Below are positions 1,670 to 64,000 of a stretch of DNA of 64,000 bases, piece by piece. The notes beneath the pieces are model-generated. The model was not told the origin of the DNA. It did not search any database and was given only the letters and a program-made list of their open reading frames with translations. The translations under genes were made by a program, and so were the position numbers. Source of the stretch: a virus; the IMG/VR virus record IMGVR_UViG_3300044695_006747, positions 122,824 through 186,823 of that record; one strand, written 5' to 3'. Each line of letters starts with the position of its first letter. The first letter of the stretch is position 1.

Positions 1670-1672
1670 ATT

Positions 1673-2545
1673 TTATCTCAATGGTAATAGACTTGTTTTA
1701 TGTTCTGCTAACAATGATCCATATTTTACAGTGCTGGCTATATTTTCATTTCCTATAAAATCTAATAAAATATTAGCTATTATTTCTTCTGGAGGCCCGA
1801 ACAGATTATTATCAAATTCTTTTATCATTCTTATGATAGCATTCGAATATTTGTTCATTATATGAGACCCACCGTATGCAATTTTATCATTATGAAGTTC
1901 TGGTATATATATTTTATTATTGTCCAACATATCCAATTTAATAACTCTTCTGCATTCTTCGATATCAAAGCGCATATCTGGCCTCAATCTAAATACCCAG
2001 TCATATTTTTTATTATTTTTATATTCGCTCTGTAATTTAAGTAAATTTGCTTTATATATCAAATAAAACATCTTACACGATCCTATAACTCCGTTGTGTA
2101 TTCCTCTTCCATCCCAATTATATTTACATTTTGTTAAAATATTCCATTGAAGAGGAGAAAACTCAGATGCATAAAAAGCATAATCGTTAACTTCTATTTC
2201 TTTAGCTTCAAAATTTTGTATAATATCTTCGACATTAATATCTATATTGTGACTACCTGGTTCTGATAATCCGTGAGCACTAGACCAGCAATTTGCACTA
2301 TTTTGTTTATTCCATGTGGCAATAAAAACATCAATATCTCCATATTGACTTATCAAATTTTTAAATTCTAAATAATTTTTGTGTAAACGTTTATAGTCTC
2401 TAATATGGCCAGATATACAGAAGGCTATAGATAGCTTATCGTCTGTTTTATATTTTATGTCTAGATGTTCAGATATAATATTTTCAGCTTCAATTAGTTG
2501 TTTATAGCGTTTTCTAAAAAATATTTTTTGAATAGTTTTCCACAT
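1673..2545 (-). CDS. Hypothetical glycosyltransferase-like protein
   Basis: IAFCISGHIR, DVFIATW, YDWVFRLRPD motifs; glycosylation-cluster context. Confidence 0.5.
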   Translation of the reverse strand: MWKTIQKIFFRKRYKQLIEAENIISEHLDIKYKTDDKLSIAFCISGHIRDYKRLHKNYLEFKNLISQYGDIDVFIATWNKQNSANCWSSAHGLSEPGSHNIDINVEDIIQNFEAKEIEVNDYAFYASEFSPLQWNILTKCKYNWDGRGIHNGVIGSCKMFYLIYKANLLKLQSEYKNNKKYDWVFRLRPDMRFDIEECRRVIKLDMLDNNKIYIPELHNDKIAYGGSHIMNKYSNAIIRMIKEFDNNLFGPPEEIIANILLDFIGNENIASTVKYGSLLAEHKTSLLPLR

Positions 2546-2555
2546 AATTATAATA

Positions 2556-3917
2556 TTATTGATTAATTTTTAAGAAAATTTCTAAATCTTCTGGTGTTCC
2601 TAAACCATACATGTTTTTAATATGATAAGTTCTAATCTTTTTATTATCCTGTATAGCTTCATTAAATACGGGACAAACATAGAATTCATTATTTATACGA
2701 ATATTTTTCTCTATCATTTGTTGTGCGTAGCGAACGAAATCTTTTCCTTTATTCCAATAATATATGCCAACAGTAGCTATATTAGATATTGGTTTTTTTT
2801 CTGCTACTTCGTTTACAAGATTATGTTCATCTAGTTTAACGAAAGACCATTTAGGGTGTGTTGATTCAAAAGTTAATATGCAACCATCCAGACTAGAATT
2901 TTCCATAGTATACATAAAATCATTACTATTCCAATCTATATATTGATCAGAATTAGCTATTAGTAGAGGATCATTTGTATTTATTAAATCTTTTGTCAGT
3001 AATACTGTGCAGGCAGCGCCTTCTGTGATGTGATCAACACAGATAATTTTGCAGTTGGGCGCAATAAGATTGAGTAAGTATTTTAAATTAAAGTCTTCAT
3101 AATGTTTTTGTTGAACAATAAAAATATAGTTAGCATCTATATTGATATTATCAACAATTCTTTTTATCATTGGTTCGCCATTAACATCTATTAGTGGCTT
3201 TGGAAAAGTATATCCAGCTTTCTCAAACCTAGAAGCTGCACCAGCCATTGGTATAACTATATTTAGTTTATCGTTAGACCATTTATTAGATATGGCTATT
3301 TTATTCATAGTATTAACTTTATTTATTAGTGAACTATTTATATCTTTAGTTCTTTTGACTTTTATAACAAAAGCTCCACTATTCTCTGCCGCCTGTATTC
3401 CTAATGGCGAATCTTCTACAATAATAGTTTCTTTTGGGCAAACTCTTGCAGATATCATACATTTAAGATAAATTTCTGATGATGGTTTTGCAAGCATTAC
3501 ATCCTCATTCGAGTAGAATATATCAATATACTTTATATATCCTGTATAATACAGTGCAGATTTTACGGTTTCTCTTATACTATTTGACGCTACTGCTATT
3601 ATTGCTCCAGATTCCTTTAGTTGTTTGAGCGTCTGAATAATATTGGGATCTCCCTGTAAATTTTCTATATATTTTGATGTTTTTTTCTGTTTATTTAACC
3701 ATATAGTATTATAGGAATTTTCTGGTAGTCCTTTATTTTTAGTCAGTAGTTTTAGTTTATCGAATGTTTTCATTCCATCATATAAGGATATGTGTTCTTC
3801 ATATGATATGATAAAAGATTTATCAAATTCACTTATTGCTTCATTAAGAACATTGAAATGCATGTCTTTCATATCTACAAGCACTCCATCTAGATCAAAA
3901 ATAATTAGTTTAATCAT
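2556..3917 (-). CDS. HAD phosphatase fused to a sugar nucleotidyltransferase
   Basis: N-terminal FDLDGVL...KPS...IVEDS (HAD motifs); C-terminal IPMAGAASRF..GY..PKPLI (NTP transferase). Confidence 0.85.
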   Translation of the reverse strand: MIKLIIFDLDGVLVDMKDMHFNVLNEAISEFDKSFIISYEEHISLYDGMKTFDKLKLLTKNKGLPENSYNTIWLNKQKKTSKYIENLQGDPNIIQTLKQLKESGAIIAVASNSIRETVKSALYYTGYIKYIDIFYSNEDVMLAKPSSEIYLKCMISARVCPKETIIVEDSPLGIQAAENSGAFVIKVKRTKDINSSLINKVNTMNKIAISNKWSNDKLNIVIPMAGAASRFEKAGYTFPKPLIDVNGEPMIKRIVDNINIDANYIFIVQQKHYEDFNLKYLLNLIAPNCKIICVDHITEGAACTVLLTKDLINTNDPLLIANSDQYIDWNSNDFMYTMENSSLDGCILTFESTHPKWSFVKLDEHNLVNEVAEKKPISNIATVGIYYWNKGKDFVRYAQQMIEKNIRINNEFYVCPVFNEAIQDNKKIRTYHIKNMYGLGTPEDLEIFLKINQ

Positions 3918-4365
3918 ATGTATATTCTTTTATATAGTCACTACATATTCCATATGAATTTAATAATTCTTGTTTAGAATAAAAAGATATCTCTGGTAAA
4001 ACACATACTGTCTTCTTGTTTAGTGACGATCCAGGATATGCCCAGCCTATGCTTTTGGAAGTTAATGTATATTTATCTTTTTCATGCCAAAAAAAATGTA
4101 GATCAGGATATTCATTTTGAATCTGTAATAAATAAAATAAACAATCAGAATTTTTACAATGTATCCATATATTGGGATTGGTTAATAATTCTGAAGGCAT
4201 ATCGTATTTAGGCGAATCATGTCCCAACATTAGTTTATTATTTACAAACCATAAATCTATTTCAACATTATATTTTAGATTTAATGCATTATTGATATAG
4301 TTTGGATGATTTTCCTTACTAATATTTTTACCAGTAAGATTTCCTCGATGTGATATATATATCAT
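3910..4365 (-). CDS. PLC/GDPD-like phosphodiesterase
   Basis: YISHRGNL, EN-H-P, VEIDLW, LGHD motifs. Confidence 0.7.
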   Translation of the reverse strand: MIYISHRGNLTGKNISKENHPNYINNALNLKYNVEIDLWFVNNKLMLGHDSPKYDMPSELLTNPNIWIHCKNSDCLFYLLQIQNEYPDLHFFWHEKDKYTLTSKSIGWAYPGSSLNKKTVCVLPEISFYSKQELLNSYGICSDYIKEYTYD

Positions 4366-4979
4366 ATTATTTTTGTAAAATATATTTTAGCTTGATTACC
4401 ATATTGATCTATGGGATAAACATTAGTAATAGCAAATTGATTCAATTTAAGGAAATCTGTAGTCTCTGATAGAGAGTTTTGATTAAGGTATATTGCTTCG
4501 GGAATGATCGAAGCAATAAGACTTCCTTCGTGGACTAAGCTAATATATTTACCTAAACCATGCAAGATATCTAAATCGCTACCGTTAGCGTCTATATTCA
4601 GATAGTCTATACAGTTAATTTTTTCTTCAAGACTATCTATAAAAATATCTAGTCTAGTTACAGAAACTTTTGTGTGTTGTGTAACGATAAAATCGTTTCT
4701 TCCTGGCCATACATTCATACAATTATCAGAAAAATTCAATAAAGAACTTAAATTGTGATTATTTGTACCAGCGATATTAAATTTTGATATAGCTTCATAA
4801 TTAGATACTGCTTTTTGTATAGTATAGCAATTTTTAAGTTGATTATTTTTTATACGCTCATTTAGAGTTTCAATGAGTTGTTCTACTGGTTCAAAAAAAT
4901 AAATCCTATCATTTTCTTCAAATATTTTATTACTAATATAGTTGGATTCTAAGCCAGTTCCAATATCAAATATAATCAT
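4362..4979 (-). CDS. FkbM-family SAM methyltransferase
   Basis: IFDIG, FFEPV, RLD, YLNIDANGSDLDIL. Confidence 0.8.
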   Translation of the reverse strand: MIIFDIGTGLESNYISNKIFEENDRIYFFEPVEQLIETLNERIKNNQLKNCYTIQKAVSNYEAISKFNIAGTNNHNLSSLLNFSDNCMNVWPGRNDFIVTQHTKVSVTRLDIFIDSLEEKINCIDYLNIDANGSDLDILHGLGKYISLVHEGSLIASIIPEAIYLNQNSLSETTDFLKLNQFAITNVYPIDQYGNQAKIYFTKII

Positions 4980-5707
4980 TTTGGTAATAGATCATCAGAT
5001 GTGTATGGGCTTCTATGATTGTTTGTGTGAAAATCTTCTGACGGAACCCATGTACCATCTATTGCCCCTATATTTTGAATTCTAGATATCAATGGTTTAA
5101 TTTGATAAAAATTCATATTATCATTTTGAAATATGTTTTGATCAAGATAGGTGTCCCATGAAGAAGAGTTATTTTCTCTATTACAGTCTTGTGTCCAGTT
5201 TTCCTCAAAGACTTGAAATTTATGTTTCCAAAAAGCACATCCCCAACAAGTAAAATGTTTTTGTCTTAGCGTGTCTGATATAGATAAGTTCTCTAGAGAG
5301 CTTGTTTTATTATATCCAGCAACGCTGATAATCTCTTTGTCGTCATGATATTTTTCTAAACATTCGATAAAAAAAGAGATACAATCTTTAGACAAAACAG
5401 TATCATCCTCTAAGTGTATAGTTGCATCATTTTCTTCTAAAGACATCAGTATTGCTTGTCTAGTATTTGCATTACACCCAATAGAAGGATTATTTACTAC
5501 ATATTTAGTATTAATCCAGTCTATATTTTTAATCATACTAGGTATAGTATTATCAAAATAGTCTATAGAAATATACAGATTTGTTTTTGATATATTAATT
5601 TTACAAAATTCTATGCTAGCTAATAGACTATCTAATACTGTATCTAAATAGTCAGCTCTTTTATAGCATGTTAGAGAAATGCCTATTTTATTATTCTTGT
5701 ATAACAT
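4976..5707 (-). CDS. GT-A fold glycosyltransferase (GT2-like)
   Basis: TCYKRADYL, YISID, IHLEDD, TCWG, SRIQNIG. Confidence 0.75.
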   Translation of the reverse strand: MLYKNNKIGISLTCYKRADYLDTVLDSLLASIEFCKINISKTNLYISIDYFDNTIPSMIKNIDWINTKYVVNNPSIGCNANTRQAILMSLEENDATIHLEDDTVLSKDCISFFIECLEKYHDDKEIISVAGYNKTSSLENLSISDTLRQKHFTCWGCAFWKHKFQVFEENWTQDCNRENNSSSWDTYLDQNIFQNDNMNFYQIKPLISRIQNIGAIDGTWVPSEDFHTNNHRSPYTSDDLLPK

Positions 5708-6149
5708 CTTTTAATGATTTTTTAGTAATATTCTTAAAATATTCTTCTCCATAATTAACAAATATTTCATCGCCAGTTTTAATTGGTTTTTTAGCGATAA
5801 TATCTACATATAACTTAGGAAAATTAAAAGCCGTATCGGCATTATTTTCATCTTGATGATTATATATCATTCCATGTCCAGCAACCATAAAAAATAGAAA
5901 TCCATGATTTTTGCATTCACTACAATCACACAAGGGTTTGGGATAACAGTATTTCCATACGGTTGGTTCTAATTGATATCTTGATCTATTCATTAGAGGT
6001 ATTAATGGACATCTTTCTATAACCTCATGTTCCGATATGTCTGCAACTGCTACAACTCCTCTGCCGTCTATTGGTGACATAAAACATTTGATTTTTGTAG
6101 ATTGAAAATAATCAACAGAAATATCTTTTGAGGCAGTTTCTTTTTCCAT
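5691..6149 (-). CDS. SET-domain protein methyltransferase
   Basis: SPIDGRGVVA, IYNH, AKKPIKTGDEIFVNYG. Confidence 0.85.
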   Translation of the reverse strand: MEKETASKDISVDYFQSTKIKCFMSPIDGRGVVAVADISEHEVIERCPLIPLMNRSRYQLEPTVWKYCYPKPLCDCSECKNHGFLFFMVAGHGMIYNHQDENNADTAFNFPKLYVDIIAKKPIKTGDEIFVNYGEEYFKNITKKSLKDVIQE

Positions 6150-6161
6150 CTTTTTATACCT

Positions 6162-6695
6162 TTATATATTGAAAAAATACCATCTATTATAGTTTTTTAT
6201 ATTATTATCTGAATTAATATAGTTTAAATAATACTTAATATCTTGCCAGTTAGAAAAAATCATTTCGTGAGGAATAGTTCCAAAAAGCCAATCTGGAGCA
6301 AATCTTTTTCCTTGTACCATATGTATTATAATAGGTTTCTTCTGTCTGTTTGCCCAAAAAATTTCTTCATAAGTGCCGCATGGATGCACTTCTAAATCTA
6401 AATTAACTATTAGAAAGTCACTAATGTCTACGAGTCTGAGATCAACAGATCTAATTGTTTTCATTAAATAAGAAAGCTCATCATATTTTTGATCGCTTTT
6501 AAGTTTAATTTTATACTCATGAGTTTTTTGGTCTTCTTGTCCGAGAACTGTTGGTTTTTTTATAGGATTAAAAACAACAATTCCTAAATTTTCTAGAAAT
6601 GGAGTAATATTATCTCTCCATCCATTTCCTCGATCAGCAACCCTGTCCATTGCTCCAGCCAAATATACTCTTTGATTTTTTAATCTACTATTCAT
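6162..6695 (-). CDS. Nucleoside 2-deoxyribosyltransferase-like protein
   Basis: VYLAGAM, VFNP, DL-x-x-V-x-x-SD, GTYEEI, KPII. Confidence 0.75.
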   Translation of the reverse strand: MNSRLKNQRVYLAGAMDRVADRGNGWRDNITPFLENLGIVVFNPIKKPTVLGQEDQKTHEYKIKLKSDQKYDELSYLMKTIRSVDLRLVDISDFLIVNLDLEVHPCGTYEEIFWANRQKKPIIIHMVQGKRFAPDWLFGTIPHEMIFSNWQDIKYYLNYINSDNNIKNYNRWYFFNI

Positions 6696-6770
6696 GATTA
6701 GTAAATAAGACCTTTATAAATACCATATCCTATACTAAATAAAACTACATAGTAATATACATAATTTATT

Positions 6771-7340
6771 TCACTTGACATAGATATACACAGGAATATC
6801 GATCCATATGTCCTCTATTAGATTCTCAATAAAATTCCAATTTCCCCCAGCTAATCCAGAACCAAATTTTGGAGCATGGATTTCATATTTTATATCTTCA
6901 ATATTATTTTTTGATAGAGATAAAATTTTATTTCTAATATCATTCATACAAAAAACCAATGAACCATAATTAAGAGGTCTATGATTTTTTGGATTAATAG
7001 TTCCATTTTGTGCGATCATATTACAAACAATAACTTTTGTTTTTGTCAAATTATTATTTGCTACATTTATATATTGTGTATGACCAAGAACAGACTTATT
7101 GCCAAGAAGATGAAAATTTTCTTTTACTATTGGAAATTTGTCGCCTATGTATTTGGCAAAACCCGCTCCAAATAGATTTATATTATTACAAACATGAGGT
7201 ATGAAAACAGTTGTTGGACTATTAGTTAAGCCAAGCCTGCTAATAGCAGACTCAACAATATCATTTTTTGTATATATAAGCTTATTATTTTGTGTTTTCT
7301 TTTTTGTATAATTAATCATCACCATTTCTCCAAAGGACAT
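6771..7340 (-). CDS. Macrodomain (ADP-ribose processing) protein
   Basis: HVCNNINLFGAGFA, NMIAQ, IHAPKFGSGLAGGNW. Confidence 0.85.
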   Translation of the reverse strand: MSFGEMVMINYTKKKTQNNKLIYTKNDIVESAISRLGLTNSPTTVFIPHVCNNINLFGAGFAKYIGDKFPIVKENFHLLGNKSVLGHTQYINVANNNLTKTKVIVCNMIAQNGTINPKNHRPLNYGSLVFCMNDIRNKILSLSKNNIEDIKYEIHAPKFGSGLAGGNWNFIENLIEDIWIDIPVYIYVK

Positions 7341-7555
7341 TTTTGATCAGCCCAAGCCAATTTATTTAAGAACACTTTTTTTCTTGATAAATTACATCCA
7401 CAAACCAAACATTGGTTATTTTCAAACTTGTCGCATTTTATACATATATCATATCTTTTATTGATTAGATTCTGTGAACTTTTTGGTAGTCCAGCCTGGA
7501 TATGAAAATATAAAGACTTGAGAAAAGTTTTTATTCTACGAAATAGGGTTTTCAT
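7319..7555 (-). CDS. Cys-rich hypothetical protein
   Basis: RYDICIKC...CLVCGC...KCPLEKW. Confidence 0.6.
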   Translation of the reverse strand: MKTLFRRIKTFLKSLYFHIQAGLPKSSQNLINKRYDICIKCDKFENNQCLVCGCNLSRKKVFLNKLAWADQKCPLEKW

Positions 7556-7974
7556 AAATTGGTAAAAAATTATTATCGTTATTTATGTAATACAAAGAAA
7601 CTGTTTTAACCACAGTATTAGCTTTTAACCATCTAACAAAACCATTCCTCATAGATATGCACAATCTAGATCCATCTTTTTTTATATCTGTAGTTATTAA
7701 GAATAACTCATCATTATAGAAAAAGGTTCTTCCGCTAGGTATTTCTTCAATATAGAAATCTCGATCCTGAATCAGATTCCCAATCGTCCCATAGTTCTTG
7801 TGCTCTGAGTTCATTTTTCTTAAGTTTATATTGTTTTTTTTGTTTATTCTGGGCGTACTGTTCTTCTGATATGTCTGTTTTTTTGTTTTTGGTGTTGTTT
7901 TCTACAACTTTTCTTTTTGGTTTTTTGTCTGGTTCTTCAAAGTGATTCATACGATTATCCTATGCTTACGCTAT

Positions 7975-8002
7975 ATTATAGTGATCAATCTGAAACAGTC
8001 AA
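7975..8002 (-). promoter_or_regulatory. Sigma70-like promoter TTGACT-N16-TATAAT
   Basis: Read directly, upstream of ORF 7747..7950. Confidence 0.65.
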
Positions 8003-8059
8003 GGTTGTGAATTGAAAAATTTTTGGTTGACAGCATCACGAAATGCTCTTATAACTTAT

Positions 8060-8965
8060 TCAGAGTTGGCTTATTACTGGTTGTATTAGTGGTACTTTAC
8101 CGTTTAGTTTCTTGTTATGCTTATAGAAAATTTCTAAGAATTCTTTTCTGTTTTTCGGCTTACTTATACTATTAGTATTACAAAAGTCTAGGTATAATGA
8201 AGCGCAACCAACAGCAAATGGATTAGACATACTAGTTCCACTCATTATTGAGTAGTTATTTTTCGGAACACAACTTAGTATATTCTCTCCTGGTGATAAA
8301 AAATCCAATTCTTCACCAAAGCATGTAAAATCAGAAATTTTTAAATCTTCATTTATTGAACCTATTGCTATTGTTTCCTCATATTTTGCTGGATACAAAA
8401 TTGGGTGATCTAATCCCATGTTACCAGCAGCACAAAAAACTAAAACATTATTTTTAATAGCATATTTAATAGCAGAATATACATCTCTTGAGTTTTCTAT
8501 TGATCCTAAAGACATAGTGATAATGTCGCTGGCTCTATCAACAGCCCAGACTATTGCTTTTGCAACAATGTCGTTGTTACCATTGCCTTCTGCGTCTAAT
8601 GCTTTTATTGGTAATATTTTTGTGTCAGGAGCTACTCCGACTATTCCTTTTTTATTATTTGACGCGGCTACTATTCCGGCCACATGAGTTCCATGACCAT
8701 TATCATCTTCTGGATAATTTGAATTATCTATAAAATTATAACCTTGAATTAGATTATTTTTTATATCTTCATGATTAAGATCGCATCCAGTATCTATAAC
8801 AGCAACTTTTATATTCTTACCAGTATATTGTGTCCAATTAGAATCTATATTAAATTTCACTATTTGCCAACCAAACATTTGGCAAGAACTAGTATTTAAA
8901 CCATATATTTTTTCTTCTTTATATGGTAATAATTTACAAAGATCTTTTTTATTTTTTTTTCTCAT
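8060..8965 (-). CDS. Subtilisin-family (S8) serine peptidase
   Basis: Catalytic triad VIDTG / HGTHVAG / GTSMS. Confidence 0.95.
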   Translation of the reverse strand: MRKKNKKDLCKLLPYKEEKIYGLNTSSCQMFGWQIVKFNIDSNWTQYTGKNIKVAVIDTGCDLNHEDIKNNLIQGYNFIDNSNYPEDDNGHGTHVAGIVAASNNKKGIVGVAPDTKILPIKALDAEGNGNNDIVAKAIVWAVDRASDIITMSLGSIENSRDVYSAIKYAIKNNVLVFCAAGNMGLDHPILYPAKYEETIAIGSINEDLKISDFTCFGEELDFLSPGENILSCVPKNNYSIMSGTSMSNPFAVGCASLYLDFCNTNSISKPKNRKEFLEIFYKHNKKLNGKVPLIQPVISQL

Positions 8966-54481: not shown

Positions 54482-56163
54482 GATGTTTTGTCTAAAATTA
54501 TTTCTAATTGAGAAGAAATATATTCTTCGGTTGTAATGTAATTATATTCAAGTGTGTTCTTGTTGTTTTGTGGTTGACAGTGCTTATAGTTTGTGGTATA
54601 GTCGAGTTTGTTAAAAGAATAGTCTTCAAGATTAACTGTGGGCAAACCTACTATAACCGCAACGCTAATAGCGCTTTCAATAAACATAACTCACTGAGTC
54701 AAGCCTGTGTAAAAGCCATAAGCAACACCAAAGCAAATACAAAAAGCAAAAATAAAACACCCCACTTTGGAAAGGTAAAATGCCGTCCTAACACTAACAC
54801 TATTGTAACACAAAGGCGAGCAAGACGCAAACCCTTGGTATCAAATAACTTACAAGCGAAACCTCGATTGTGTAAATTTTTATACCTTGACGACTATAGC
54901 AGGAGAACTTATATATTATTCAGCCGGGGCAGATATAATACTTATAAGCATCTATCTCTCTATGATTTCCTGATTGACAACTTTGTCCACCCTGCTACAA
55001 TACTATGAGTCTCTAGGACTTACTGATCCTTTGGTTTTTTATCCAAAAATTTTTTGAGTTTAGCAGCATATGTGTTCCAGAATTCACACTCCTCTTCTAG
55101 ATTCCATATTTCTGCTGTAACATCTGTCACATCATTTGGCAACCAATCAGAGTTATCATTAACCCATTGGTAAAATTTATCGAAAATTAACTTACGATGA
55201 TTGTTGATCACAGACACGAGAATGTTCCAGATCTTTAATTAGAATACTAATATAGGAACTACTAGCCTGTTCACTAGGATTATATTGCCGATAAAATTCC
55301 AGAGCATTTAGGATAATATCCATATCCACTCTAGGAAATCTGTAACTATCATATTCAGGATCATACTTCATAGTAGTCATTATTCCTTGATGCAAAGTAA
55401 CAAAAAGTAAAATAGGCTAACAGAATATATAAACTCATTCAAACTCCGATATGCTAGTAATATTCTCAGGACCAAAATCCCCAAAGAATTCAGGGTCTGT
55501 ATAGAGTTTACTATTCAAATAGTCAACAATACAATCCTTGTTATAAACACCCTCAATCATTTTGCAAGTATCATCATCAATAACAAGTTCAATTTGTACT
55601 TTCACAAGTTTCATGTTTCTGCTCCATGATAAGTTGGTTCATATAATAACCAGCAACAGATTGCCACTCTTTACACTGGTCCATATATCTTTTTTCACCA
55701 GTAATACCATACCAGTTAAGATTATGAGAACAGCAATCTAACGCATGATTAATAGCACTAATAATTTCATCCATTTTTAATCTCCTCTTCTGCATCATCA
55801 ATATACCACTCATATTCACCATCTCTAGCAAACCCGATCAAATCTTCACTGAGACTATCAATAGCAAAATCTGCTTCTGGACTATTAACGTCAGTAATCT
55901 CAGGAAAATCAAAAACAACATAAACTTTCATAGTGACCCTTTCTTTCGCTGACTATCGCCAAGACTGCAAATCCGTAGGATTAGGTAAGACGGGCTGAAT
56001 AGGTCGATCATTATCATCTGATTTTATAGAAGAGATTTCCATTAATCATCTCTACTAATATTAGTCGTAAACCCTTGACAGATAACGACTTACGCCTCCA
56101 TTGTATCGTCTAGCCTCTGGAGTAGCAAGCAACCTTTTTGAGATTCTTTGACAAAATCTCGAT

Positions 56164-56207
56164 CTGCCATCTTGACAGGTGCCGCGGGCGATCTGCCGTT
56201 TTGGCAG
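56164..56207. repeat. 44-bp double-palindrome element, copy 1 (inverted)
   Basis: CTGCCATCTTGACAG gtgccgcgggcgat CTGCCGTTTTGGCAG. Confidence 0.85.
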
Positions 56208-56264
56208 ACTCAATGTATGCTACGGCTTGCACTAAGTCAGTTAATGTATTATATAGTTTACATT

Positions 56265-56306
56265 AAATAAAAGAACCGCCGCAGGGCATTACCCCTACGG
56301 CGGCTC
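56265..56306 (-). terminator. Intrinsic terminator downstream of DUF932
   Basis: GAGCCGCCGTAGGG-GTAATG-CCCTGCGGCGGTTC followed by TTTTATTT. Confidence 0.88.
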
Positions 56307-56328
56307 TCACCACGCCACGAAAGGAAGA

Positions 56329-57279
56329 CTAGATCGCGTTGGCAAACTCTAGGGCAGATTCCAACGCCTTGTTGTTCTCATTAGCGTTCTGGCCGAACCA
56401 GAGGCTATCGAGTCGGTTGTCGGTCGTGCGACCCTTACCATAGTTCAGATATTCATTGAACCCGTTATAGGCAGCCCACCAAGTACCGCGAACATTAGCC
56501 GCAGTTTGCTTTGGGCCTTCGATACGAGCCAGAATATCGTCCATAATATTACGGGTACGAGTCTTGATATCCTCGTCAGCACCCTTAATATTCAGCACAA
56601 CCTTAACATACTTCTCAATATCCTTCTGGTTGAAACTCTTGCTAGCAAGGAACCGATACTGTTCCGCAGTAGCCTCAAAACCAGCGTTAATATTATCCAT
56701 AATATCGCGGACTTGTTCCAGATTTTTCTGGCTGGAGCGAGTGTGACGAATACGGATCAGTTTGCTATCATTATGCTTGTGAGCATACGACAGCGTGTTC
56801 ACGCAGACCACGCGAATCGGAGTGTATCCGACACGAATAGCCGTTGTACCGTCGTGACTATTACTCAGCAGGATAAACTTGCTAACCTCATCACCCGGAA
56901 CAATCTCACTATTGTCACGGTTGAGTTGAGCAAGCACCCAGACCTTTTGGCCGAGATGCAGCGATCCGGCAGTATGGATCGAACACTCGTTAGCATCAAG
57001 GAAAGGCTGGAACCAATCAAACGCATCCTTATTCTGGAGGGGAGTATAACGAGGGCCAACAACGCCAAGAATACTACCATCACTCTTGCGGTATGTCGCA
57101 CGATGATTCACGGGCGTACCGTCAACGGTCTGCAAATCCTTCAGACCAACTTCCCAATCCAGACCAGCAGCGACGATAGCATCATTCACATTGATACCCT
57201 CGTCAACGCTATTACCAAGGCCATGCCAAGGCGTCTCACCAACAAACATCATCTTTTCAACAGCAGCAGGCATAATCAA
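56329..57279 (-). CDS. DUF932-family phage/plasmid protein
   Basis: PWHGLG, AGLDWEV, YTPLQN.DAF, TAGSL..G.KVW, NSHDG, TPIRVVC.NTL, GTWWAAYN. Confidence 0.9.
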   Translation of the reverse strand: MIMPAAVEKMMFVGETPWHGLGNSVDEGINVNDAIVAAGLDWEVGLKDLQTVDGTPVNHRATYRKSDGSILGVVGPRYTPLQNKDAFDWFQPFLDANECSIHTAGSLHLGQKVWVLAQLNRDNSEIVPGDEVSKFILLSNSHDGTTAIRVGYTPIRVVCVNTLSYAHKHNDSKLIRIRHTRSSQKNLEQVRDIMDNINAGFEATAEQYRFLASKSFNQKDIEKYVKVVLNIKGADEDIKTRTRNIMDDILARIEGPKQTAANVRGTWWAAYNGFNEYLNYGKGRTTDNRLDSLWFGQNANENNKALESALEFANAI

Positions 57280-57373
57280 ACTCCTTCGTGGGTGTTAACT
57301 TCTTTCGTTCCGATACGCTGATTCTACAGTATGTATTCGGCTTGTCAAGCGTTAGAAATCCAGAAAATCTTTT

Positions 57374-57417
57374 CTGCCATTTTGGCAGGCGGGCCGCGGA
57401 TGCTGCCATTGTGGCAG
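57374..57417. repeat. 44-bp double-palindrome element, copy 2
   Basis: CTGCCATTTTGGCAG gcgggccgcggatg CTGCCATTGTGGCAG; abuts the PRTase stop codon. Confidence 0.92.
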
Positions 57418-57918
57418 TCACCCAATATTTAACAGCGAAACCCCAAGATCACGCTTGCACAGTTTAGAACCATCCTCGTCGTTACGATAAGCACATTCGT
57501 TAGGCAGATAGCAATAGACCCCAACACAATGAGAACGCGAATACTCATCCTTGATAACCTTTTTGATATGCCGAACGGTCGAACCAGAACAGATTAAATC
57601 GTCTAATATAATATATTGAAAAGGGGCCACTCCCTCGGTACGAAACTCTGAATAGCATCGTTCCCCCTTTCTTACCACAACAATATTCTTGTTGAGTATT
57701 TCTGCGATTTGTGGAACCACCATCAATCCACTTACACCGCAGCAGGCAATGCTATCAAAACTATCTGCTATTTTTCTCAAATCACAAACAGCCTTAATAA
57801 TAATCTTATTACGAGCCTTATGATTCAAAACGTGACAAGTGTGGCTAGCCCCTTGGATATATTTTCCATCAGCGGTCTTGCGAACATCTTCAACTTTTTG
57901 ATTTAAAATATTGCTCAT
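57418..57918 (-). CDS. Type I phosphoribosyltransferase
   Basis: PRPP-binding IILDDLICSGST; GVSGL, VVVRK. Confidence 0.85.
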   Translation of the reverse strand: MSNILNQKVEDVRKTADGKYIQGASHTCHVLNHKARNKIIIKAVCDLRKIADSFDSIACCGVSGLMVVPQIAEILNKNIVVVRKGERCYSEFRTEGVAPFQYIILDDLICSGSTVRHIKKVIKDEYSRSHCVGVYCYLPNECAYRNDEDGSKLCKRDLGVSLLNIG

Positions 57919-57923
57919 AAAAA

Positions 57924-58015
57924 CGATGGACGGTACGATTCGAACGTACTAAGAAAGGATAGATAAAGCGTTATGCTTAGGTATAGAATACTTGTCCCAC
58001 CAAGTTGCGTCCATC
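57924..58015 (-). ncRNA. 92-nt tRNA-like element with 8-bp acceptor and 5-bp T-stem, no clear anticodon arm
   Basis: GATGGACG/CGTCCATC then G; GTACG TTCGAAT CGTAC; ACTTG/CAAGT D-like stem. Confidence 0.5.
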
Positions 58016-58028
58016 AGACGAGAAAGGG

Positions 58029-58196
58029 CTATTCGTTGTCTAGTTCATCTACTACATTATGATAGTAGTGTTCATACTCTTTTTCATCCTCAAAATCATC
58101 ATAATCTGGTTCGTCAGAATAGTCAGCATATTCATAGAGTTCTTCTGCATCCTCTGCAACGCGATCATAGTCAAACTCATATTCATCTTCAAACAT
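58029..58196 (-). CDS. 55-aa extremely acidic protein (different frame from track ORF 58052..58282)
   Basis: MFEDEYEFDYDRVAEDAEELYEYADYSDEPDYDDFEDEKEYEHYYHNVVDELDNE. Confidence 0.65.
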   Translation of the reverse strand: MFEDEYEFDYDRVAEDAEELYEYADYSDEPDYDDFEDEKEYEHYYHNVVDELDNE

Positions 58197-58241
58197 AGCC
58201 ACTTTCTCCTTTTCTCTATCTTACACCAAACCAAACAACTG

Positions 58242-58655
58242 TCAAGACCCAAGAACTTTTTCAATCTCATAATCACAAGCAAGATTAATCTTATCTTTTT
58301 GATTATTTTTTGGAGACTCTTTTCTTAGATTAAATAAGGTATTATTTTCTGTCAGTATATCTGAGGATACTAGATATACTTTACCATCTTCTAGATCGTA
58401 TGCGGCAAAGTAGTCAAACATTGAAGCATCATAATAAAACTGATAGTTTGGGCCACTCTTTTTTAGAGGTATTTTAATACAACCATCTACAGGTGTTATT
58501 GCTTTAGATTGTATCTTTATTAGTTTACCATCTTTTTCAGCAATAATATCTATTTTAGAGATATCTCCTTCTTCTGTGAATACGGAGTATCCCAGTTTAG
58601 TCAATGCTAAACCAACACCAAACTGCCCTATATTACCTTTTCTTTTACTGTGCAT
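58242..58655 (-). CDS. PD-(D/E)XK endonuclease, I-Ssp6803I-like (free-standing)
   Basis: KGNIGQ...LGYSV...IDII...LIKIQSK...FDYFAAY; directly downstream of tRNA-Lys. Confidence 0.75.
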   Translation of the reverse strand: MHSKRKGNIGQFGVGLALTKLGYSVFTEEGDISKIDIIAEKDGKLIKIQSKAITPVDGCIKIPLKKSGPNYQFYYDASMFDYFAAYDLEDGKVYLVSSDILTENNTLFNLRKESPKNNQKDKINLACDYEIEKVLGS

Positions 58656-58713
58656 TATTATCTCCTAGAGTAGTTTACTAGTAATCTGCTACTCTAGTTA
58701 TACACCATATTAG

Positions 58714-58786
58714 TGGAGGCGGTGGGACTCGAACCCACGGTTTTCGGTTTAAAAGACCGCTACTTTAGCCACTAAGTTACGCCTCC
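58714..58786 (-). tRNA. tRNA-Lys(UUU)
   Basis: GGAGGCG/CGCCTCC, A73, loop CT-TTT-AA. Confidence 0.9.
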
Positions 58787-58838
58787 TTGTTCATCTACTA
58801 TACCATACGTTATCGGCTTGTCAACCCCAAAACTTTAG

Positions 58839-58919
58839 TGGTGGGTGAGGGACTCGAACCCCCGAAGTTAAAAACACCTGATCTACAGTCAGGCCCATTT
58901 GCCGCTTTGGTAACCCACC
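58839..58919 (-). tRNA. tRNA-Tyr(GUA)
   Basis: GGTGGGT/ACCCACC, CCTGA-CT GTA GA-TCAGG, long variable region. Confidence 0.92.
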
Positions 58920-58970
58920 ATTTTTCGCTGACTACAACCACCCTAACCGAATCCATAGGATTAGCTAAGA

Positions 58971-59057
58971 CGGAATCTGAGGGATTCGAACCCACGGAGG
59001 ATTTTAACCCTCGGCGGTTTAGTAAACCGCTGCCTTAAACCACTCGGCCAAGATTCC
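58971..59057 (-). tRNA. tRNA-Ser(ACU), A34 anticodon
   Basis: GGAATCT/AGATTCC, G73, GCGGT-TT ACT AA-ACCGC, long variable arm. Confidence 0.88.
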
Positions 59058-59060
59058 AAA

Positions 59061-59133
59061 CTGCCCAGGTAGGACTCGAACCTACAACCCAGCGGTTAAC
59101 AGCCGCTTGCATCTACCATTGTGCTACTGGGCA
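59061..59133 (-). tRNA. tRNA-Asn(GUU)
   Basis: TGCCCAG/CTGGGCA, G73, AGCGG-CT GTT AA-CCGCT. Confidence 0.92.
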
Positions 59134-59162
59134 ACTCTCGTAACTCTAACGTCAGCCTCCGA

Positions 59163-59233
59163 TTCCGAGACTACGATTCGAACGTAGAATAAAGGATCCA
59201 AAGTCCTCTGTGATACCGTTTCACCATCTCGGA
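59163..59233 (-). tRNA. tRNA-Gln(UUG)
   Basis: TCCGAGA/TCTCGGA, GAGGA-CT TTG GA-TCCTT. Confidence 0.9.
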
Positions 59234-59234
59234 G

Positions 59235-59307
59235 AGCCGATGGAGGGATTTGAACCCCCGACAAACGGTTTACAAAACCGCTACTCTACCAACTGAGTTA
59301 CATCGGC
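59235..59307 (-). tRNA. tRNA-Thr(UGU)
   Basis: GCCGATG/CATCGGC, GCGGT-TT TGT AA-ACCGT. Confidence 0.92.
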
Positions 59308-59773
59308 AAGACTACATATCATACTCTTGCTGCCACTCTTTGTCAATATCTCGTCGTGTACGTCGCCTTTTTGGACGACTATCCATAGCGGTATCACGAT
59401 ACTCTTTGTGACCCGTAGACACTTCCCAAGGCTTTTTAACCTTGAGTTTAATAGCGTTGCCGTACTTCCGCCGTGGTCGCGTATCGTCGTTGTTGGGGAG
59501 CGTAATCATGCCATTGTCCATTTTCGTGCAAGTAGAAAACCTTATCCAAGTTAGGGTCGTAAGCCATTAAACAATATTGTATCGGGTGTTTTACAACTGT
59601 CAAGGGCTTTTGTATTTGTGGGATTTTAATATCACCCTTTTGATAATCCTTAAATCCAGTATAGGCCAATCCCAAAACCGTTACCAGAACTCCTATCCAT
59701 TGTATCATATTCGATCCTCGTGTCAATACTCTTGCCATGATATGTTTATCGACCATCCCGGCCTAAAACTTTA

Positions 59774-59817
59774 ATGCCATTTTGGCAGTTGGGCCGCGGA
59801 GGCTGCCACTATGGCAG
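59774..59817. repeat. 44-bp double-palindrome element, copy 3
   Basis: ATGCCATTTTGGCAG ttgggccgcggagg CTGCCACTATGGCAG; contains the stop codon of ORF 59809..60051. Confidence 0.9.
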
Positions 59818-60303
59818 ATCTTCCTCCCTCTCTTTAGCACGAATCATAACCTTGGGCGTTTTAATAACCTGAGTTAAACTATCAGCATTTTTATAATCGC
59901 GGAATCCACGTTCGTCAACATAGAAATATTCGTCAAAAATATCAAACTCATTAGTATCATTAAATACCGCAATAGCAGCGTCCATAGGACTACTTTCAGG
60001 AATACTAATAACCTTTTCAACCGTATTACTTTTTACATACCATTTGCTCATGGCTCAACTCCCTAGACTAATACGAACGGACGTAACATCAAGGCTACCA
60101 TCATCAAGTTTTGTAACGTCAATATCATTATCTTCCAGAATCATCCACAAGTCTGGCAAAGCCACAAGAGTATCATAGTTATTACCGAAACTCAAATCGC
60201 TATCACAAACCATTTCCATAACATCGGTATAGTCTAGATTATTATGGTCGCAATAATCTTTGAGAGTAACGCAAGTGTGAGTAAAAGTCTGCATTATAGC
60301 CTT

Positions 60304-61008
60304 TCAATGGGCAGGGAATAGAACATTAGCCAAACCGCGAACACACAGGTCACATGATATACTATCTTTCGTGCCGGTGCAAGTGATTTCCGACCGACCA
60401 CGACGGATTTCCGGACACGTTACAAACTTGCTACCATTCAGCACAACAAGTTTAGGCAACGCTTTCCGCCATGCTTCCGCCTTGACTTTACTCTTTGGAC
60501 GCTTCGGGGCGATTTTCATATCACTATCACACCACGCAAACAACTTGAAACCTTGTGCCAGTGCTTCGCCCATGTCATTATCATCGTGGACACTAGCATA
60601 TACATTCATATACTTTTCCAGACTAACAAGCCGACTATCATAAATATGGGTATAAAACCACATATCGGGCAGACTATCACCATCGGCAAGAATACTCTCA
60701 CACGCCCACGTTACATTAGCAACATAGTCTAGGTCAAGTTCGCCATTGAGAAACCAGTCGCCACGTTCGTGCCAGCGAATAGACTTTTTACGCTTTTTAG
60801 CGTCAAGAATCATAGCACGGATTTTATGCTTTTCCGTGACTATGTTAGCAAACCCGGCAACGCGAGCGTTCTTATACTGATTTTCCGTAGCCTCAGCATA
60901 GCAACCGTTATTTAGATAATCGCAGTCGCTTGGGCAAGTATCGCCAACCGGACGCGAAACCACAATGCAACCCTTACCCAACTTATCGTTACCGTCTGCC
61001 GTTTTCAT
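60304..61008 (-). CDS. GP88-like Cys-rich phage protein
   Basis: TCPSDC...CYA, IRWHERGDW, WFYTH, CP...C...CDLC. Confidence 0.7.
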   Translation of the reverse strand: MKTADGNDKLGKGCIVVSRPVGDTCPSDCDYLNNGCYAEATENQYKNARVAGFANIVTEKHKIRAMILDAKKRKKSIRWHERGDWFLNGELDLDYVANVTWACESILADGDSLPDMWFYTHIYDSRLVSLEKYMNVYASVHDDNDMGEALAQGFKLFAWCDSDMKIAPKRPKSKVKAEAWRKALPKLVVLNGSKFVTCPEIRRGRSEITCTGTKDSISCDLCVRGLANVLFPAH

Positions 61009-61030
61009 GGTTATCTCCTCGTGTCTACCG

Positions 61031-61058
61031 ATTCTACACTATGGTATCGGGTTGTCAA
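61031..61058 (-). promoter_or_regulatory. Promoter TTGACA-N16-TAGAAT with CCGATA core
   Basis: TTGACA ACCCGATACCATAGTG TAGAAT; 24 bp from element copy 4. Confidence 0.78.
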
Positions 61059-61082
61059 CAGGAAAAACTTCAAGAAAAATAA

Positions 61083-61126
61083 CTGCCACTTTGGCAGATC
61101 GGCCGCGGAGCCTGCCGTTTTGGCAG
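61083..61126. repeat. 44-bp double-palindrome element, copy 4
   Basis: CTGCCACTTTGGCAG atcggccgcggagc CTGCCGTTTTGGCAG; 6 nt after the tRNA-Arg 3' end. Confidence 0.92.
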
Positions 61127-61132
61127 ACAGAA

Positions 61133-61204
61133 TAGCCCCAGGAGGAATCGAACCTCCAATAACCGCTTAGAAGGCGGTTGTTATATCCATTTAACTATGG
61201 GGCC
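61133..61204 (-). tRNA. tRNA-Arg(UCU)
   Basis: GGCCCCA/TGGGGCT, ACCGC-CT TCT AA-GCGGT. Confidence 0.92.
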
Positions 61205-61749
61205 ATAAAAACCGATAGCCGCCAGTTCGACACTAGCGGTCTATCGGATATTATAGCAGTTATGCTAGGCTCAGGCAACGGCCTCAACTTCCTTGGCAAC
61301 CTTGCCATTGTGGGCATCACCAGCAGCCTTGGCAGTCACGCCAGTGACCCTAGCACGCCAGACCTTATAACCCTGCTCGCTGAAAGCCTTGACCTCTCCA
61401 GCCTTGACATTCGCGTGAACGTCGGCAGGCAGAGCATCGGTCAGACAGGTGGAGATCGAATCCACCACAACCTCACGGTCAAGATCATCGGCAACAATAT
61501 CGACAACAAAAGAAAACTTCTTCATGGCAAACCCTTTCAAGTTAGTGTTATCAAACCTTACAAAACCAATCTTATCACGCAATCATCACTTGTCAAGAGC
61601 CAATCCGAACTTTTGTTTTATCGTGATCGGTTGGCGTCTTGTCGTGTGATGCTATCAGTATACCACTGTTATCGTCACTGTCAACCACGCTCCTGAATGT
61701 TTTTTTGGATTTTTCCTAAGTGTATGGTATCAAAGAAGTTACGTTCAGT

Positions 61750-61793
61750 CTGCCATTTTGGCAGTTGGGCCGCGGCGCCTGCCGCTTTGGCAG
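61750..61793. repeat. 44-bp double-palindrome element, copy 5
   Basis: CTGCCATTTTGGCAG ttgggccgcggcgc CTGCCGCTTTGGCAG; abuts the stop codon at 61794. Confidence 0.92.
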
Positions 61794-62162
61794 TTATGAG
61801 AGATAACCCTCACAACCCAAAGAGGTCAGGTCACGCAGCAACCCTTCGGCCGCATCGGGAGTCTTAGCGGTCATAGTGATGGGATTACCACCACCACGCC
61901 AATATCCGCTCTCGTCGTAGCGACCAACCATACCATCGGTCCAATCCTTCGCTTCCTTGAGTCCCCAGCCTGTGTGCTGTCGAACAGCCTTGATGCAAGA
62001 AATGCGGTTATTGGTATCCATACCCTTGGTGATCGTAACCCTACGCTTCTGGTTTACGCCCAATGCAACCTCAAAAGCGGTCACGATACGCTCGTAAACA
62101 TTCTGGTGGCAGTTAGCAGCCAGATCCATAGCCTCACGAACACTCAGTTCCAACTTGATCAT
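61794..62162 (-). CDS. Protein containing a ribosomal L7/L12 C-terminal-like domain
   Basis: RISCIKAVRQHTGWGLKEAKDWTD...A..L...L...G. Confidence 0.75.
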   Translation of the reverse strand: MIKLELSVREAMDLAANCHQNVYERIVTAFEVALGVNQKRRVTITKGMDTNNRISCIKAVRQHTGWGLKEAKDWTDGMVGRYDESGYWRGGGNPITMTAKTPDAAEGLLRDLTSLGCEGYLS

Positions 62163-62641
62163 ACGCCAAAACTTTCTGTATACTTAGGGGTGATTTCTTG
62201 AATACCGTCAAAACTACCGTTACGCTCTTCTAGAATATAAACTTGCTTACCATCAGTAATCAAGGTGTCATATTCTGTTCCATCCCAAACAAACTCGTTA
62301 TTGTCGCTTTCTCGTCGCCAGTGTGGATCACGAAGTGGATTATAAAACAACTTCTCAAGATTGTCAACAGGCAGAGCGGGATAAAAATCCTTCCTCAACA
62401 TAACTTCTTCACATCGCACCCACCCACTAACATCATGCACACCAGCCTCAAATACCTGTTTAGCCTTATTCGGCCGGTTCCACAACTTACAACCCCGCAT
62501 CTCTAACTGATATTTTTTGGGGTCAACGTAGTATACATCAACTGTTTCCCCACCCTGCTTAACCTTTATTTGCCAGTGCATATAATGCTGGCCATTACTC
62601 AGGTGAAATCGAACTTCGCCATGTAGTTTGTTCTGTTTCAT
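62159..62641 (-). CDS. Hypothetical protein
   Basis: VRFHL..G.HYMHWQIK; promoter at 62648-62676. Confidence 0.65.
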   Translation of the reverse strand: MKQNKLHGEVRFHLSNGQHYMHWQIKVKQGGETVDVYYVDPKKYQLEMRGCKLWNRPNKAKQVFEAGVHDVSGWVRCEEVMLRKDFYPALPVDNLEKLFYNPLRDPHWRRESDNNEFVWDGTEYDTLITDGKQVYILEERNGSFDGIQEITPKYTESFGV

Positions 62642-62872
62642 GCTTATACTATACCTTATCGACCAATCGTTGTCAAGACCTTTAAACTTTCGCTGACTAC
62701 AGCCACACTAGCCAAATCCGGAGGATTAGGAAAAACAATGTCGGCTTCCGCCATACTCGACCAACATTTCAGATAGCCTCTTTTGATATCATTGTGGCTA
62801 TCCCCGTCCATTGTTTCCCTAAGTATACCATTAGTATCGGCACTGTCAATACCAATCTATAAGAAAAATATT

Positions 62873-62916
62873 CTGCCATTTTGGCAGTTCGGCCGCGGCA
62901 ACCGCCATTTTGGCAG
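62873..62916. repeat. 44-bp double-palindrome element, copy 6
   Basis: CTGCCATTTTGGCAG ttcggccgcggcaa CCGCCATTTTGGCAG; abuts the stop codon at 62917. Confidence 0.92.
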
Positions 62917-63042
62917 TTAATCGTTGTCGATATACCACCAATGGCATTGCTGGCAGAAGTTCCAAATGATTCCATAATCATCATACTTCCATACCAACAC
63001 ATCACACGCCCCACACGGGCAAATATCACTAAGAGTTTTCAT
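62917..63042 (-). CDS. 41-aa zinc-ribbon peptide (different frame from track ORF 62769..63029)
   Basis: MKTLSDICPCGACDVLVWKYDDYGIIWNFCQQCHWWYIDND. Confidence 0.6.
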   Translation of the reverse strand: MKTLSDICPCGACDVLVWKYDDYGIIWNFCQQCHWWYIDND

Positions 63043-63573
63043 ATACTAACCTTACATATTCATCTGCCAGTTCTTTTGTAGTTATATTATGAATCCTCAT
63101 TACATCTGCTACTTTAGTCACAACGTTTCTATTCATTGCGCTTATTCGTGAGTTAAAAAAGTTCAACAAATAAATAATCGCTTGTGAACGAGTCATTTTA
63201 TCAGCGTCAATACTATTTAAGTCACTAAAGTTTTTAGCCATTAGGATAATCCTCTGGGTAATCTGTTACTGGTCGTTCTGGTTTAGGCTGTCCCTCATAT
63301 GGCATCCACCAAGGAGCATCCATACGATCCACAAGACCCGGACTTTCTTCACAAATAAGAATATGCGGACTCACAGGATCATCACGATGAATCTCATACC
63401 GTCCACGCCACACGCCAATATCTGGCCCAAAGTAGTAAACCTTCTGGCCGTTGATAGGGCGACGATAACCAAAAAAACTAAGCCATTCCATTTTGCTTTC
63501 CTTTTCCGTCATTATACCAATCATTCTGTATCTGTCAAGAGTATTAAAATACCGGCTGTTAATAGATCGACTT

Positions 63574-63649
63574 AGTGGATAGATGGATTCGAACCATCAA
63601 CTCCTCTTGTATTTAAACAAGTGGAACTCTACCTTTGAGTTATACCCAC
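63574..63649 (-). tRNA. tRNA-like gene with extended anticodon arm, anticodon undetermined
   Basis: Normal acceptor GTGGGTA/TATCCAC, D-arm ACTC/GAGT and T-arm GATGG TTCGAAT CCATC, but anticodon arm CC-A-CTTGT-TTAAAT-ACAAG-A-GG. Confidence 0.6.
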
Positions 63650-64000
63650 CGATAGTTTTACAAATAATGTCCGGTATCACGCATTACTTAACCCTAACGG
63701 CTCTCGCAGTCTTAGGTTTCTATCCGACCCCTGTTTGTAACCAGCGGAATCATTTACGCCCCGATTCCTATAATCCATACGATTGTCCGTTGTCTGGATC
63801 GGATGGAAACCGCCCACGGAAACCTCCCTAGAATCTTTATGATTCATCTGGCTCTTGGTGACGGTTACTGATTGTATTGGTCGTGGTGAGGACGCTATCC
63901 CCCATAGATTAGCATTACTATACAGCGTATAAGCCCGCTGTCAACCCCACGCTGCATAACAGCCGTAGGTTTATCGTAATGGCTTATCCTAATCTAGTCC

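Follow-up and report, generated by a model that had tools for sequence, protein, structure and literature searches.

The final 64 kb of the IMG/VR virus record IMGVR_UViG_3300044695_006747 (186,823 bp; positions 122,824 to 186,823, a stretch of 64,000 nucleotides (nt) hereafter called the window) contain six copies of a 44-bp double palindrome, here termed the unit, at the borders of small gene cassettes. In this phage and its relatives, cassettes are gained, lost and permuted exactly at the units, and most units lie shortly upstream of a sigma70-like promoter, with which they form a repeated module. With moderate confidence, we interpret the unit as a boundary site that a putative factor would recognise by its sequence, set within a mobile regulatory cassette similar in kind to the promoter-early stem-loop (PeSL) modules of T4-type phages, and not as a plain terminator.

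Anatomy and distribution of the unit

Each unit holds the palindrome CTGCCA-TTT-TGGCAG twice at a 29-bp period, with a variable, G+C-rich 14-nt spacer between the two 15-mers. In the window, 12 of the 13 matches to CTGCCA-N3-TGGCAG with at most two mismatches are half-sites of the six units; shuffled windows contained 0.87 such matches on average, and none of 100 shuffles reached 13. All six units had been reported in an earlier reading of the bare sequence (the original prediction) and were found at the same positions, as were the three stop codons that adjoin a unit (57418, 61794 and 62917), the one inside a unit (59809), the tRNA-Arg 6 nt away and the terminator ahead of copy 1 (Table 1). 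All genes of the unit region of the window are on the minus strand.

The record ends overlap by 126 bp, and the assembly is therefore circular. A genome-wide scan gave 14 units, six in the window (genome 178987-185739) and eight just past the record junction, accompanied by some additional single palindromes. All 14 are confined to one 16-kb stretch, and the other 170 kb hold nothing comparable. According to the strand coverage of open reading frames (ORFs), genes run rightward from approximately 9 to 77 kb and leftward in the remainder, and the units take up the 16 kb with which the leftward early block begins, counted from a divergent switch at approximately 8.9 kb. The window copies are the outer, more degenerate members of the set; copy 1, the outermost and most degenerate, lies about 64 nt beyond the canonical terminator of a DUF932 gene. 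The cassette proteins are mostly without a family, and the region consists of small, largely uncharacterised genes. Its G+C content (41-47% in window 56001-64000) exceeds that of window 1-56000 (28-38%), and the cassette pool thus differs in base composition from the phage backbone.

Scanning the full genome and its relatives, as the original prediction had proposed, extended the motif well beyond these 14 copies. An exact-match scan of IMG/VR located the unit in 64 stretches of 52 contigs, which provided 202 further distinct copies, or 216 together with those of the phage itself. Five complete relatives (138-224 kb) carry 8-18 units each, in a single 9-20-kb cluster of uniform polarity. Cultured relatives were found neither by DNA nor by the F0 and F4 proteins among 50,697 phage records, and the double unit was absent from 185,579 species genomes, bar one 1.8-kb contig of a metagenome-assembled genome (MAG). 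A host origin of the site was considered and rejected, as this sole MAG with a unit contig has the palindrome nowhere else. The covariance models of Rfam 15 matched only tRNAs in window 55000-64000 and genome 1-10000.

Sequence conservation and base pairing

In the 216 copies, the 15-mers are 86-100% conserved at every position except the first (78%), and the central TTT is conserved at 88-98%. The spacer varies freely, apart from a core of G or C only (consensus GCGC) and edges rich in A or T. The period is 29 bp in 321 adjacent palindrome pairs, 28 bp in 2 and 31 bp in 3. Because the spacers differ while the arms and TTT centres do not, this uniformity is not explained by copying alone. The original prediction had derived polarity from an off-centre CCGCGG and had described the leftmost copy as inverted. 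Neither claim survived the larger sample: CCGCGG is one common spacer variant among several, and polarity is carried by the T-rich centres, which point one way in 14 of 14 phage copies and throughout each of the five relatives. The leftmost copy is therefore not inverted, and only its spacer variant differs.

Folding predicts two 6-bp stems with a 3-nt loop on either strand, with unremarkable energies. Compensatory changes are nearly absent among 2,340 stem pairs from 195 distinct units, and double changes were also scarce when the pairings 1:2/3:4 and 2:3/1:4 were compared for covariation. The stem pairs 3:13 and 5:11 are invariant; 4:12, 6:10 and the terminal pair tolerate change. The tolerated changes keep G.U or G.T on the strand with the T-rich centres (the T-centre strand) 73 times and on the gene-sense strand 24 times, and one arm of each palindrome is about three times more variable than the other. 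Variants disrupt the pairing of gene-sense RNA three times more often than they preserve it, mostly through A.C mismatches. This arm bias speaks against a hairpin selected for mRNA stability, and the conservation pattern argues for recognition of the sequence and not of the shape alone.

In the family consensus, AAAA precedes the T run, which begins about 4 nt past the stem, and a simple scan for intrinsic terminators was passed by two of the six window copies (4 and 6). Taken together, the signs of termination in the sequence are mixed. The unit abuts a stop codon exactly in 21 of the 216 copies and lies at least 40 nt from it in 87; ribosome-coupled attenuation through abutting stop codons was rejected on the ground that exact abutment is confined to those 21.

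Cassette exchange at the units

When the ORFs of all loci were clustered into families and drawn as gene maps, the layout proved to be conserved among relatives, but the gene sets between units differ. The order of two cassettes is swapped in one relative (L058). Compared with three others (L061, L023 and L055), the phage shows indels of precisely one cassette plus one unit, and the lone unit of the relative aligns with both flanking units here. Of the 411 homology breakpoints in the unit region across the 52 contigs, 85 are no more than 5 nt from a unit edge, against 8.1 expected and a maximum of 18 in 1,000 randomisations. The expectation that gene content changes exactly at the elements across relatives was thus borne out.

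The two sides of the breakpoints differ: 66 right-hand ends fall exactly at the gene-proximal edge of the unit, whereas left-hand ends scatter across the promoter module next to it. Some breakpoints also occur at promoters without any unit. This spread, together with the breakpoints at unit-less promoters, is as homologous exchange would give. A six-frame Pfam search of the whole phage gave no match to a tyrosine recombinase (PF00589), a serine recombinase or a Y1 transposase of the HUH type (PF01797), which leaves the dedicated recombinase of the original prediction unsupported.

Coupling to sigma70 promoters and sigma54 boxes

A sigma70-like promoter lies within 160 nt downstream, in the gene direction, of 151 of 206 copies (approximately 73%), and on the upstream side of 10 of 206. 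The -35 hexamer stands at a sharply preferred distance of 23-25 nt from the unit, across an A/T-rich tract; the module reads, in the gene direction, unit, A/T-rich UP-like tract and sigma70 -35/-10 hexamers. In the window, five copies stand 24-66 nt upstream of a strong minus-strand TTGACA-N16-TAnnnT promoter that matches 11 of 12 consensus positions. The claim that every copy has a sigma70-like promoter nearby holds for these five, with genes and promoters on the minus strand; copy 1 has a weak one only. A dozen minus-strand promoters in the region agree with TTGACA-N16/17-TATAAT in at least 11 of the 12 positions.

Units closer to the early/late switch also adjoin sigma54 boxes. The genome has four strict and two near matches to TGGCAC-N5-TTGCT (-24/-12) on the plus strand (genome 4479-8566), and a genome scan found boxes of such quality nowhere else; four of the genome's boxes end 4-6 nt ahead of a unit. 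In the family, a box lies 4-6 nt from the unit in 68 of 208 copies (33%), always on the T-centre strand, and the six window copies have none. Units at sigma54 boxes are nearly perfect, with 1.9% of stem pairs departing from Watson-Crick pairing, compared with 8.8% in units 21-27 nt (peak 23-25) from a sigma70 promoter. The plus-strand boxes are all directed at the late operon, antisense to the early cassettes, and one pair of boxes makes a 35-bp inverted repeat. The Pfam search of the phage gave no match to an AAA+ enhancer-binding protein (PF00158). An internal sigma54-like promoter within the unit (TGGCAG-N5-nnGC) was also considered and dropped: its GC is correctly spaced in no more than 40-64% of copies, and the -12 element lacks its T's.

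The last sigma54 box (genome 8566) is followed directly by the hairpin CCCCACC-TAT-GGGGGGG and a run of seven T. This stretch (L073 8566-8625) is kept in 19 contigs, where it appears as a spurious ORF family (F17); it might act as a terminator in a leader, or as a very small RNA, before the late operon. Beyond the box lie a small leftward gene, F3, and then the rightward late block. Its first conserved gene (L073 9133-9774, plus strand) has a weak match to sigma70 region 2 (a Pfam E of 1e-4 that misses the cut-off; PHROG, RNA polymerase sigma factor); its product is possibly a phage late sigma factor.

Table 1. Positions of units, promoters and associated features. Positions are those of the window unless the genome (locus L073) is named; PRTase, phosphoribosyltransferase.
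Feature	Position	Strand	Remarks
Copy 1	56164..56207		CTGCCATCTTGACAG / 14-nt spacer / CTGCCGTTTTGGCAG
Copy 2	57374..57417		adjoins stop codon of PRTase-like gene 57418-57918 (-); promoter 26 nt further on
Copy 3	59774..59817		contains stop codon of ORF 59809-60051 (-)
Copy 4	61083..61126		6 nt past 3' end of tRNA-Arg 61132-61205 (-)
Copy 5	61750..61793		adjoins stop codon of L7/L12-like ORF 61794-62162 (-)
Copy 6	62873..62916		adjoins stop codon of ORF 62917-63042 (-)
Eight further units	genome 557, 2184, 3138, 3777, 4498, 5554, 6979, 7833		region 557-7833
Canonical intrinsic terminator of DUF932 gene	56271..56308	-	16-bp stem, then T run; copy 1 comes after
Sigma70-type promoter TTGACA-16-TAGAAT	57321..57348	-	partner of copy 2; drives DUF932 gene 56329-57279
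Sigma70-type promoter TTGACA-16-TACAAT	59699..59726	-	partner of copy 3
Sigma70-type promoter TTGACA-16-TAGAAT	61031..61058	-	partner of copy 4; drives GP88/DUF7227-like gene 60304-61008
Sigma70-type promoter TTGACA-16-TATACT	61657..61684	-	partner of copy 5
Sigma70-type promoter TTGACA-16-TATACT	62822..62849	-	partner of copy 6
Sigma54 boxes	genome 4479, 5533, 6916, 6936 (minus strand), 6959, 7813, 8566		span 4479-8581
F3 gene	genome 8699-8929	-	76 amino acids; at divergent early/late switch
Approximately 45-nt repeat	62690-62740, ~58925-58965; genome 1850, 3478, 5117		before early promoters without double palindrome
CCTTAC palindrome	L080, L083, L094, L109, L117, L119, L142, L151 and others		sister-clade loci

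Two tRNA genes were found besides the features of Table 1. One, at window 63573-63650 (minus strand), has an anticodon that ARAGORN left undetermined and an Rfam tRNA score of 45.7 bits; the other is at genome 1906-1977 (minus strand). A DUF1501 cargo gene is similar to Planctomycetota proteins, which is a weak hint of the host.

Candidate partner proteins

The protein F3 folds into a three-helix helix-turn-helix (HTH) domain and carries an invariant tail, MVRRQRRK...KxRGR, reminiscent of an AT-hook or an arginine-rich motif. With 334 relatives in IMG/VR, F3 is a good marker of the phage group; its profile gave nothing significant against PDB sequences. F3 was rejected as the cognate binder, since the unit is present at only 6 of the best 80 F3 loci and the recognition helix is unchanged. 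The proposed search of the rest of the genome for a recombinase or HTH regulator thus yielded an HTH protein, but one that does not track the unit, and no recombinase. F0 (106 amino acids) was likewise rejected, as it is present in both the unit-bearing clade and a sister clade; an antisense ORF, F9, lies opposite F0, and the two frames share third codon positions.

The third candidate, F2, is a small beta-barrel family with several paralogues (predicted local distance difference test of the model, 86). Two of the paralogues are encoded at genome 7449-7700 and 8243-8479. The folds nearest to F2, all with weak E-values, are those of bL19, RimP, Sm/LSm/Hfq and chromo-like domains. F2 was found by tblastn only at unit-bearing loci, and a profile finds diverged relatives in the sister clade. 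F2 is a weak lead as the partner of the unit.

The sister clade and other hairpin repeats

A different, single palindrome, CCTTAC-N6-GTAAGG, holds the equivalent place in 35 of the best 80 F3 loci. Its stem is conserved and its loop free, and it lies 33 nt before the -10 hexamer TATAAT of a sigma70 promoter. In about 35 of the 69 copies, a sigma54 box, on one strand or the other, lies no more than 60 nt upstream, and the pairing bias of this hairpin is in the same direction as that of the CTGCCA unit. The two palindrome types never occur in one genome.

Two further hairpin repeats accompany early genes of the phage. One, intergenic and approximately 45 nt long, contains a pair of small hairpins, AATCC-nnn-GGATT and GCTG-TAGT-CAGC (Table 1). 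The other consists of CCCCCAC-N-GGGGG hairpins at L073 5205-5226, 6308-6332 and 6592-6615, which reach into the 3' ends of small leftward genes; the next -35 hexamer follows about 20 nt downstream, and the hairpins recall the GGGG...CCCC stem-loops of the RB49 PeSLs.

Comparison with known systems

In the T4-type phages RB49 and phi1, recombination between repeated PeSL modules shuffles ORFans and yields mini-circles, and the RB49 stem-loops act as terminators in a reporter assay (Arbiol et al. 2010, PMC2839356). The original prediction held that the unit resembles neither PeSLs nor attC sites, which is half right. In architecture and evolution it is PeSL-like: the repeated intergenic module joins a stem-loop to an A/T-rich tract and a strong sigma70 promoter; the modules cluster in a hyperplastic region made up of small ORFan genes; and insertions, deletions and replacements between related phages end at the modules, with no recombinase required (PMC2839356). 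The sequence and the double-palindrome geometry of the stem-loop part are new. Unlike PeSLs, the unit is a fixed pair of identical 15-bp palindromes with an exact 29-bp period, conserved in sequence across dozens of phages; it always takes the upstream edge of the module; and one third of units are fused to sigma54 boxes. The carriers are unrelated, uncultured phages of 138-224 kb.

The likeness to integron attC sites lies in imperfect palindromes that follow ORFs and bound exchangeable cassettes. However, attC sites keep structure and not sequence, vary in length and require IntI and attI, and integron cassettes are promoterless, whereas the unit is nearly invariant in sequence, each cassette has its own promoter, and no integrase (PF00589) was matched in the phage. 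Unlike repetitive extragenic palindromic elements and bacterial interspersed mosaic elements with their REP-associated tyrosine transposases (REP/BIME with RAYT), the unit has no matching HUH Y1 transposase (PF01797) in the phage and is almost absent from the 185,579 species genomes.

Many copies of one short intergenic site, oriented with transcription or close to many promoters, are also a feature of cluster A mycobacteriophage stoperators (the oriented case) and of the sites of global repressors with many operators (P1 C1 and IncP KorB). Those sites are single, distributed genome-wide and served by a known repressor; the units are paired palindromes confined to one 16-kb early region. NtrC-type sigma54 enhancers comprise two dyad sites about three helical turns apart, 80-150 bp upstream of the promoter. 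The unit shares with them the two dyads, 6-7-bp arms, a 3-bp centre and proximity to sigma54 promoters, but it lies over and downstream of the sigma54 start, beginning 4-6 nt after the -12 box, its period is 29 bp, and the phage has no match to the enhancer-binding protein of such control (PF00158). The RNA hairpins of lambda nut boxB and HK022 put lie downstream of their promoter. They resemble the unit as 15-nt hairpins with A-rich loops in early transcripts, and the first leftward gene here encodes a small arginine-rich protein; however, the units lie upstream of promoters, at the 3' ends of transcription units, and the arginine-rich F3 folds as a three-helix HTH protein and does not track the unit.

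Function of the unit

The unit is the upstream edge of a repeated early-promoter module and, near the early/late switch, also adjoins a sigma54 box. In the reading that we prefer, it would serve as a boundary site of the insulator or operator type, and we infer that two units of a putative factor, set in fixed register, would bind it by sequence, either as duplex DNA or as an extruded hairpin. Because the same 45-110-bp module stands at every cassette border, it could be the linker for general recombination of the phage, through which cassettes would be gained, lost and permuted by homologous and not by site-specific exchange. Of the mechanisms originally suggested, a putative regulator with paired binding sites would still be the best reading. 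Several points weigh against this reading. The candidate binders F3 and F0 fail to track the unit, which leaves F2 as a weak lead. A symmetric dimer on duplex DNA explains neither the arm bias nor the fixed direction of TTT, and the G+C-rich spacer core is not accounted for. The unrelated hairpin repeats before unit-less promoters favour a generic structural role, which is plausible by analogy with the RB49 terminators, and two of the six copies pass the terminator scan.

The main rival, which we consider somewhat unlikely, is a plain structural terminator or attenuator, equivalent to the stem-loop half of a PeSL, in which hairpins of the leftward mRNA limit read-through and uniformity results from recombinational copying of the module. 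It would fit the placement of the unit after gene ends and a tRNA and just before promoters, the scan results for copies 4 and 6, the effective termination by PeSL stem-loops in RB49 and phi1 (PMC2839356) and the presence of other hairpin repeats in the same position before other promoters. However, the stems have just 6 bp with a 3-nt loop, and two independent hairpins need no exact 29-bp period. The unit does not appear to be simply a terminator, because copy 1 already follows a strong canonical one, the T run is offset by about four A, and variants break gene-sense pairing mainly through A.C mismatches, a tendency shared by the sister-clade hairpin; copying alone would also be insufficient for arms and TTT centres that stay uniform while spacers differ. 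An improbable alternative assigns the palindrome to the sigma54 boxes: it would dock a phage factor, possibly one of the small, clade-specific Sm/SH3-like beta-barrel proteins, that acts directly on the host sigma54 holoenzyme at the abutting boxes and times the early/late switch. Such a factor might lock the sigma54 promoters, or open them without a classical AAA+ enhancer-binding protein, for instance by extruding a hairpin where transcription starts. The switch would lead from sigma70-driven early cassettes to the late operon headed by the sigma-factor-like gene, and the same sites would double as linkers for cassette exchange. Quite improbable, too, is an RNA element of the T-centre strand at the 5' end of sigma54-driven antisense transcripts, serving as a stabiliser, a processing site or an antitermination/attenuation device that would switch between the pairings 1:2/3:4 and 2:3. 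In its favour, the 68 neighbouring sigma54 boxes all share the T-centre strand and lie 4-6 nt ahead of the unit, which puts the start site in the first centre; the copies beside them are the best conserved; tolerated variants keep G.U on this strand (73 vs 24); and the box at genome 8566 precedes the hairpin with its T7 run and then the late block headed by the sigma-factor-like gene. On the other hand, two thirds of the copies, including all six here, have neither a sigma54 box nor a visible promoter on the T-centre strand, and the sister-clade boxes occur on both strands and flank the hairpin on the side opposite to that seen here. The 3' arms do not tolerate changes that would keep a wobble pair, and the bias may therefore reflect only one less constrained arm.

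A dedicated, attC-like site that an unrecognised phage recombinase cuts and joins is very unlikely. Breakpoints exactly at unit edges, permuted cassettes and paired palindromes that look like recombinase core sites would be expected of it, but the genome has no tyrosine recombinase, serine recombinase or HUH match in Pfam, breakpoints also fall at unit-less promoters, their left-hand ends spread over the promoter module, and the cassettes bring their own promoters. Least probable of all is a hairpin that works through a specialised enzyme, either as an N4-like template-strand promoter for a phage RNA polymerase or as an RNA decoy for a hairpin-binding nuclease of the Cas6f type. A 6-bp stem with a loop of 3 nt, in which the template strand tolerates G.T, is reminiscent of N4 early promoters; yet every cassette is already served by a strong sigma70 promoter, and the six-frame Pfam search gave no match to a T7-like RNA polymerase domain, a weak negative as its control also failed to match. 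The 5-bp stem CUGCC/GGCAG is the same as that of the type I-F CRISPR repeat hairpin, which would suit a decoy. However, the flanks of the I-F repeat are not present, the period is 29 and not 60, and Cas6f had no six-frame Pfam match in the phage.

Implications for phage biology

Through the unit, the concept of the mobile regulatory cassette reaches beyond T4-type coliphages into a large clade of uncultured phages. As the shared linker is sharply defined and easy to scan for, cassette flux in metagenomes becomes traceable base by base. The two clade-specific palindromes provide a natural specificity swap for finding the factor. The fusion of units to canonical sigma54 promoter arrays suggests a part for host sigma54 in the early/late switch of these phages, of which no description was found in the literature searched. 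If the palindrome does dock a factor that acts on the sigma54 holoenzyme, this would be a novel way of controlling sigma54 and a rare instance of a phage programme that relies on it.

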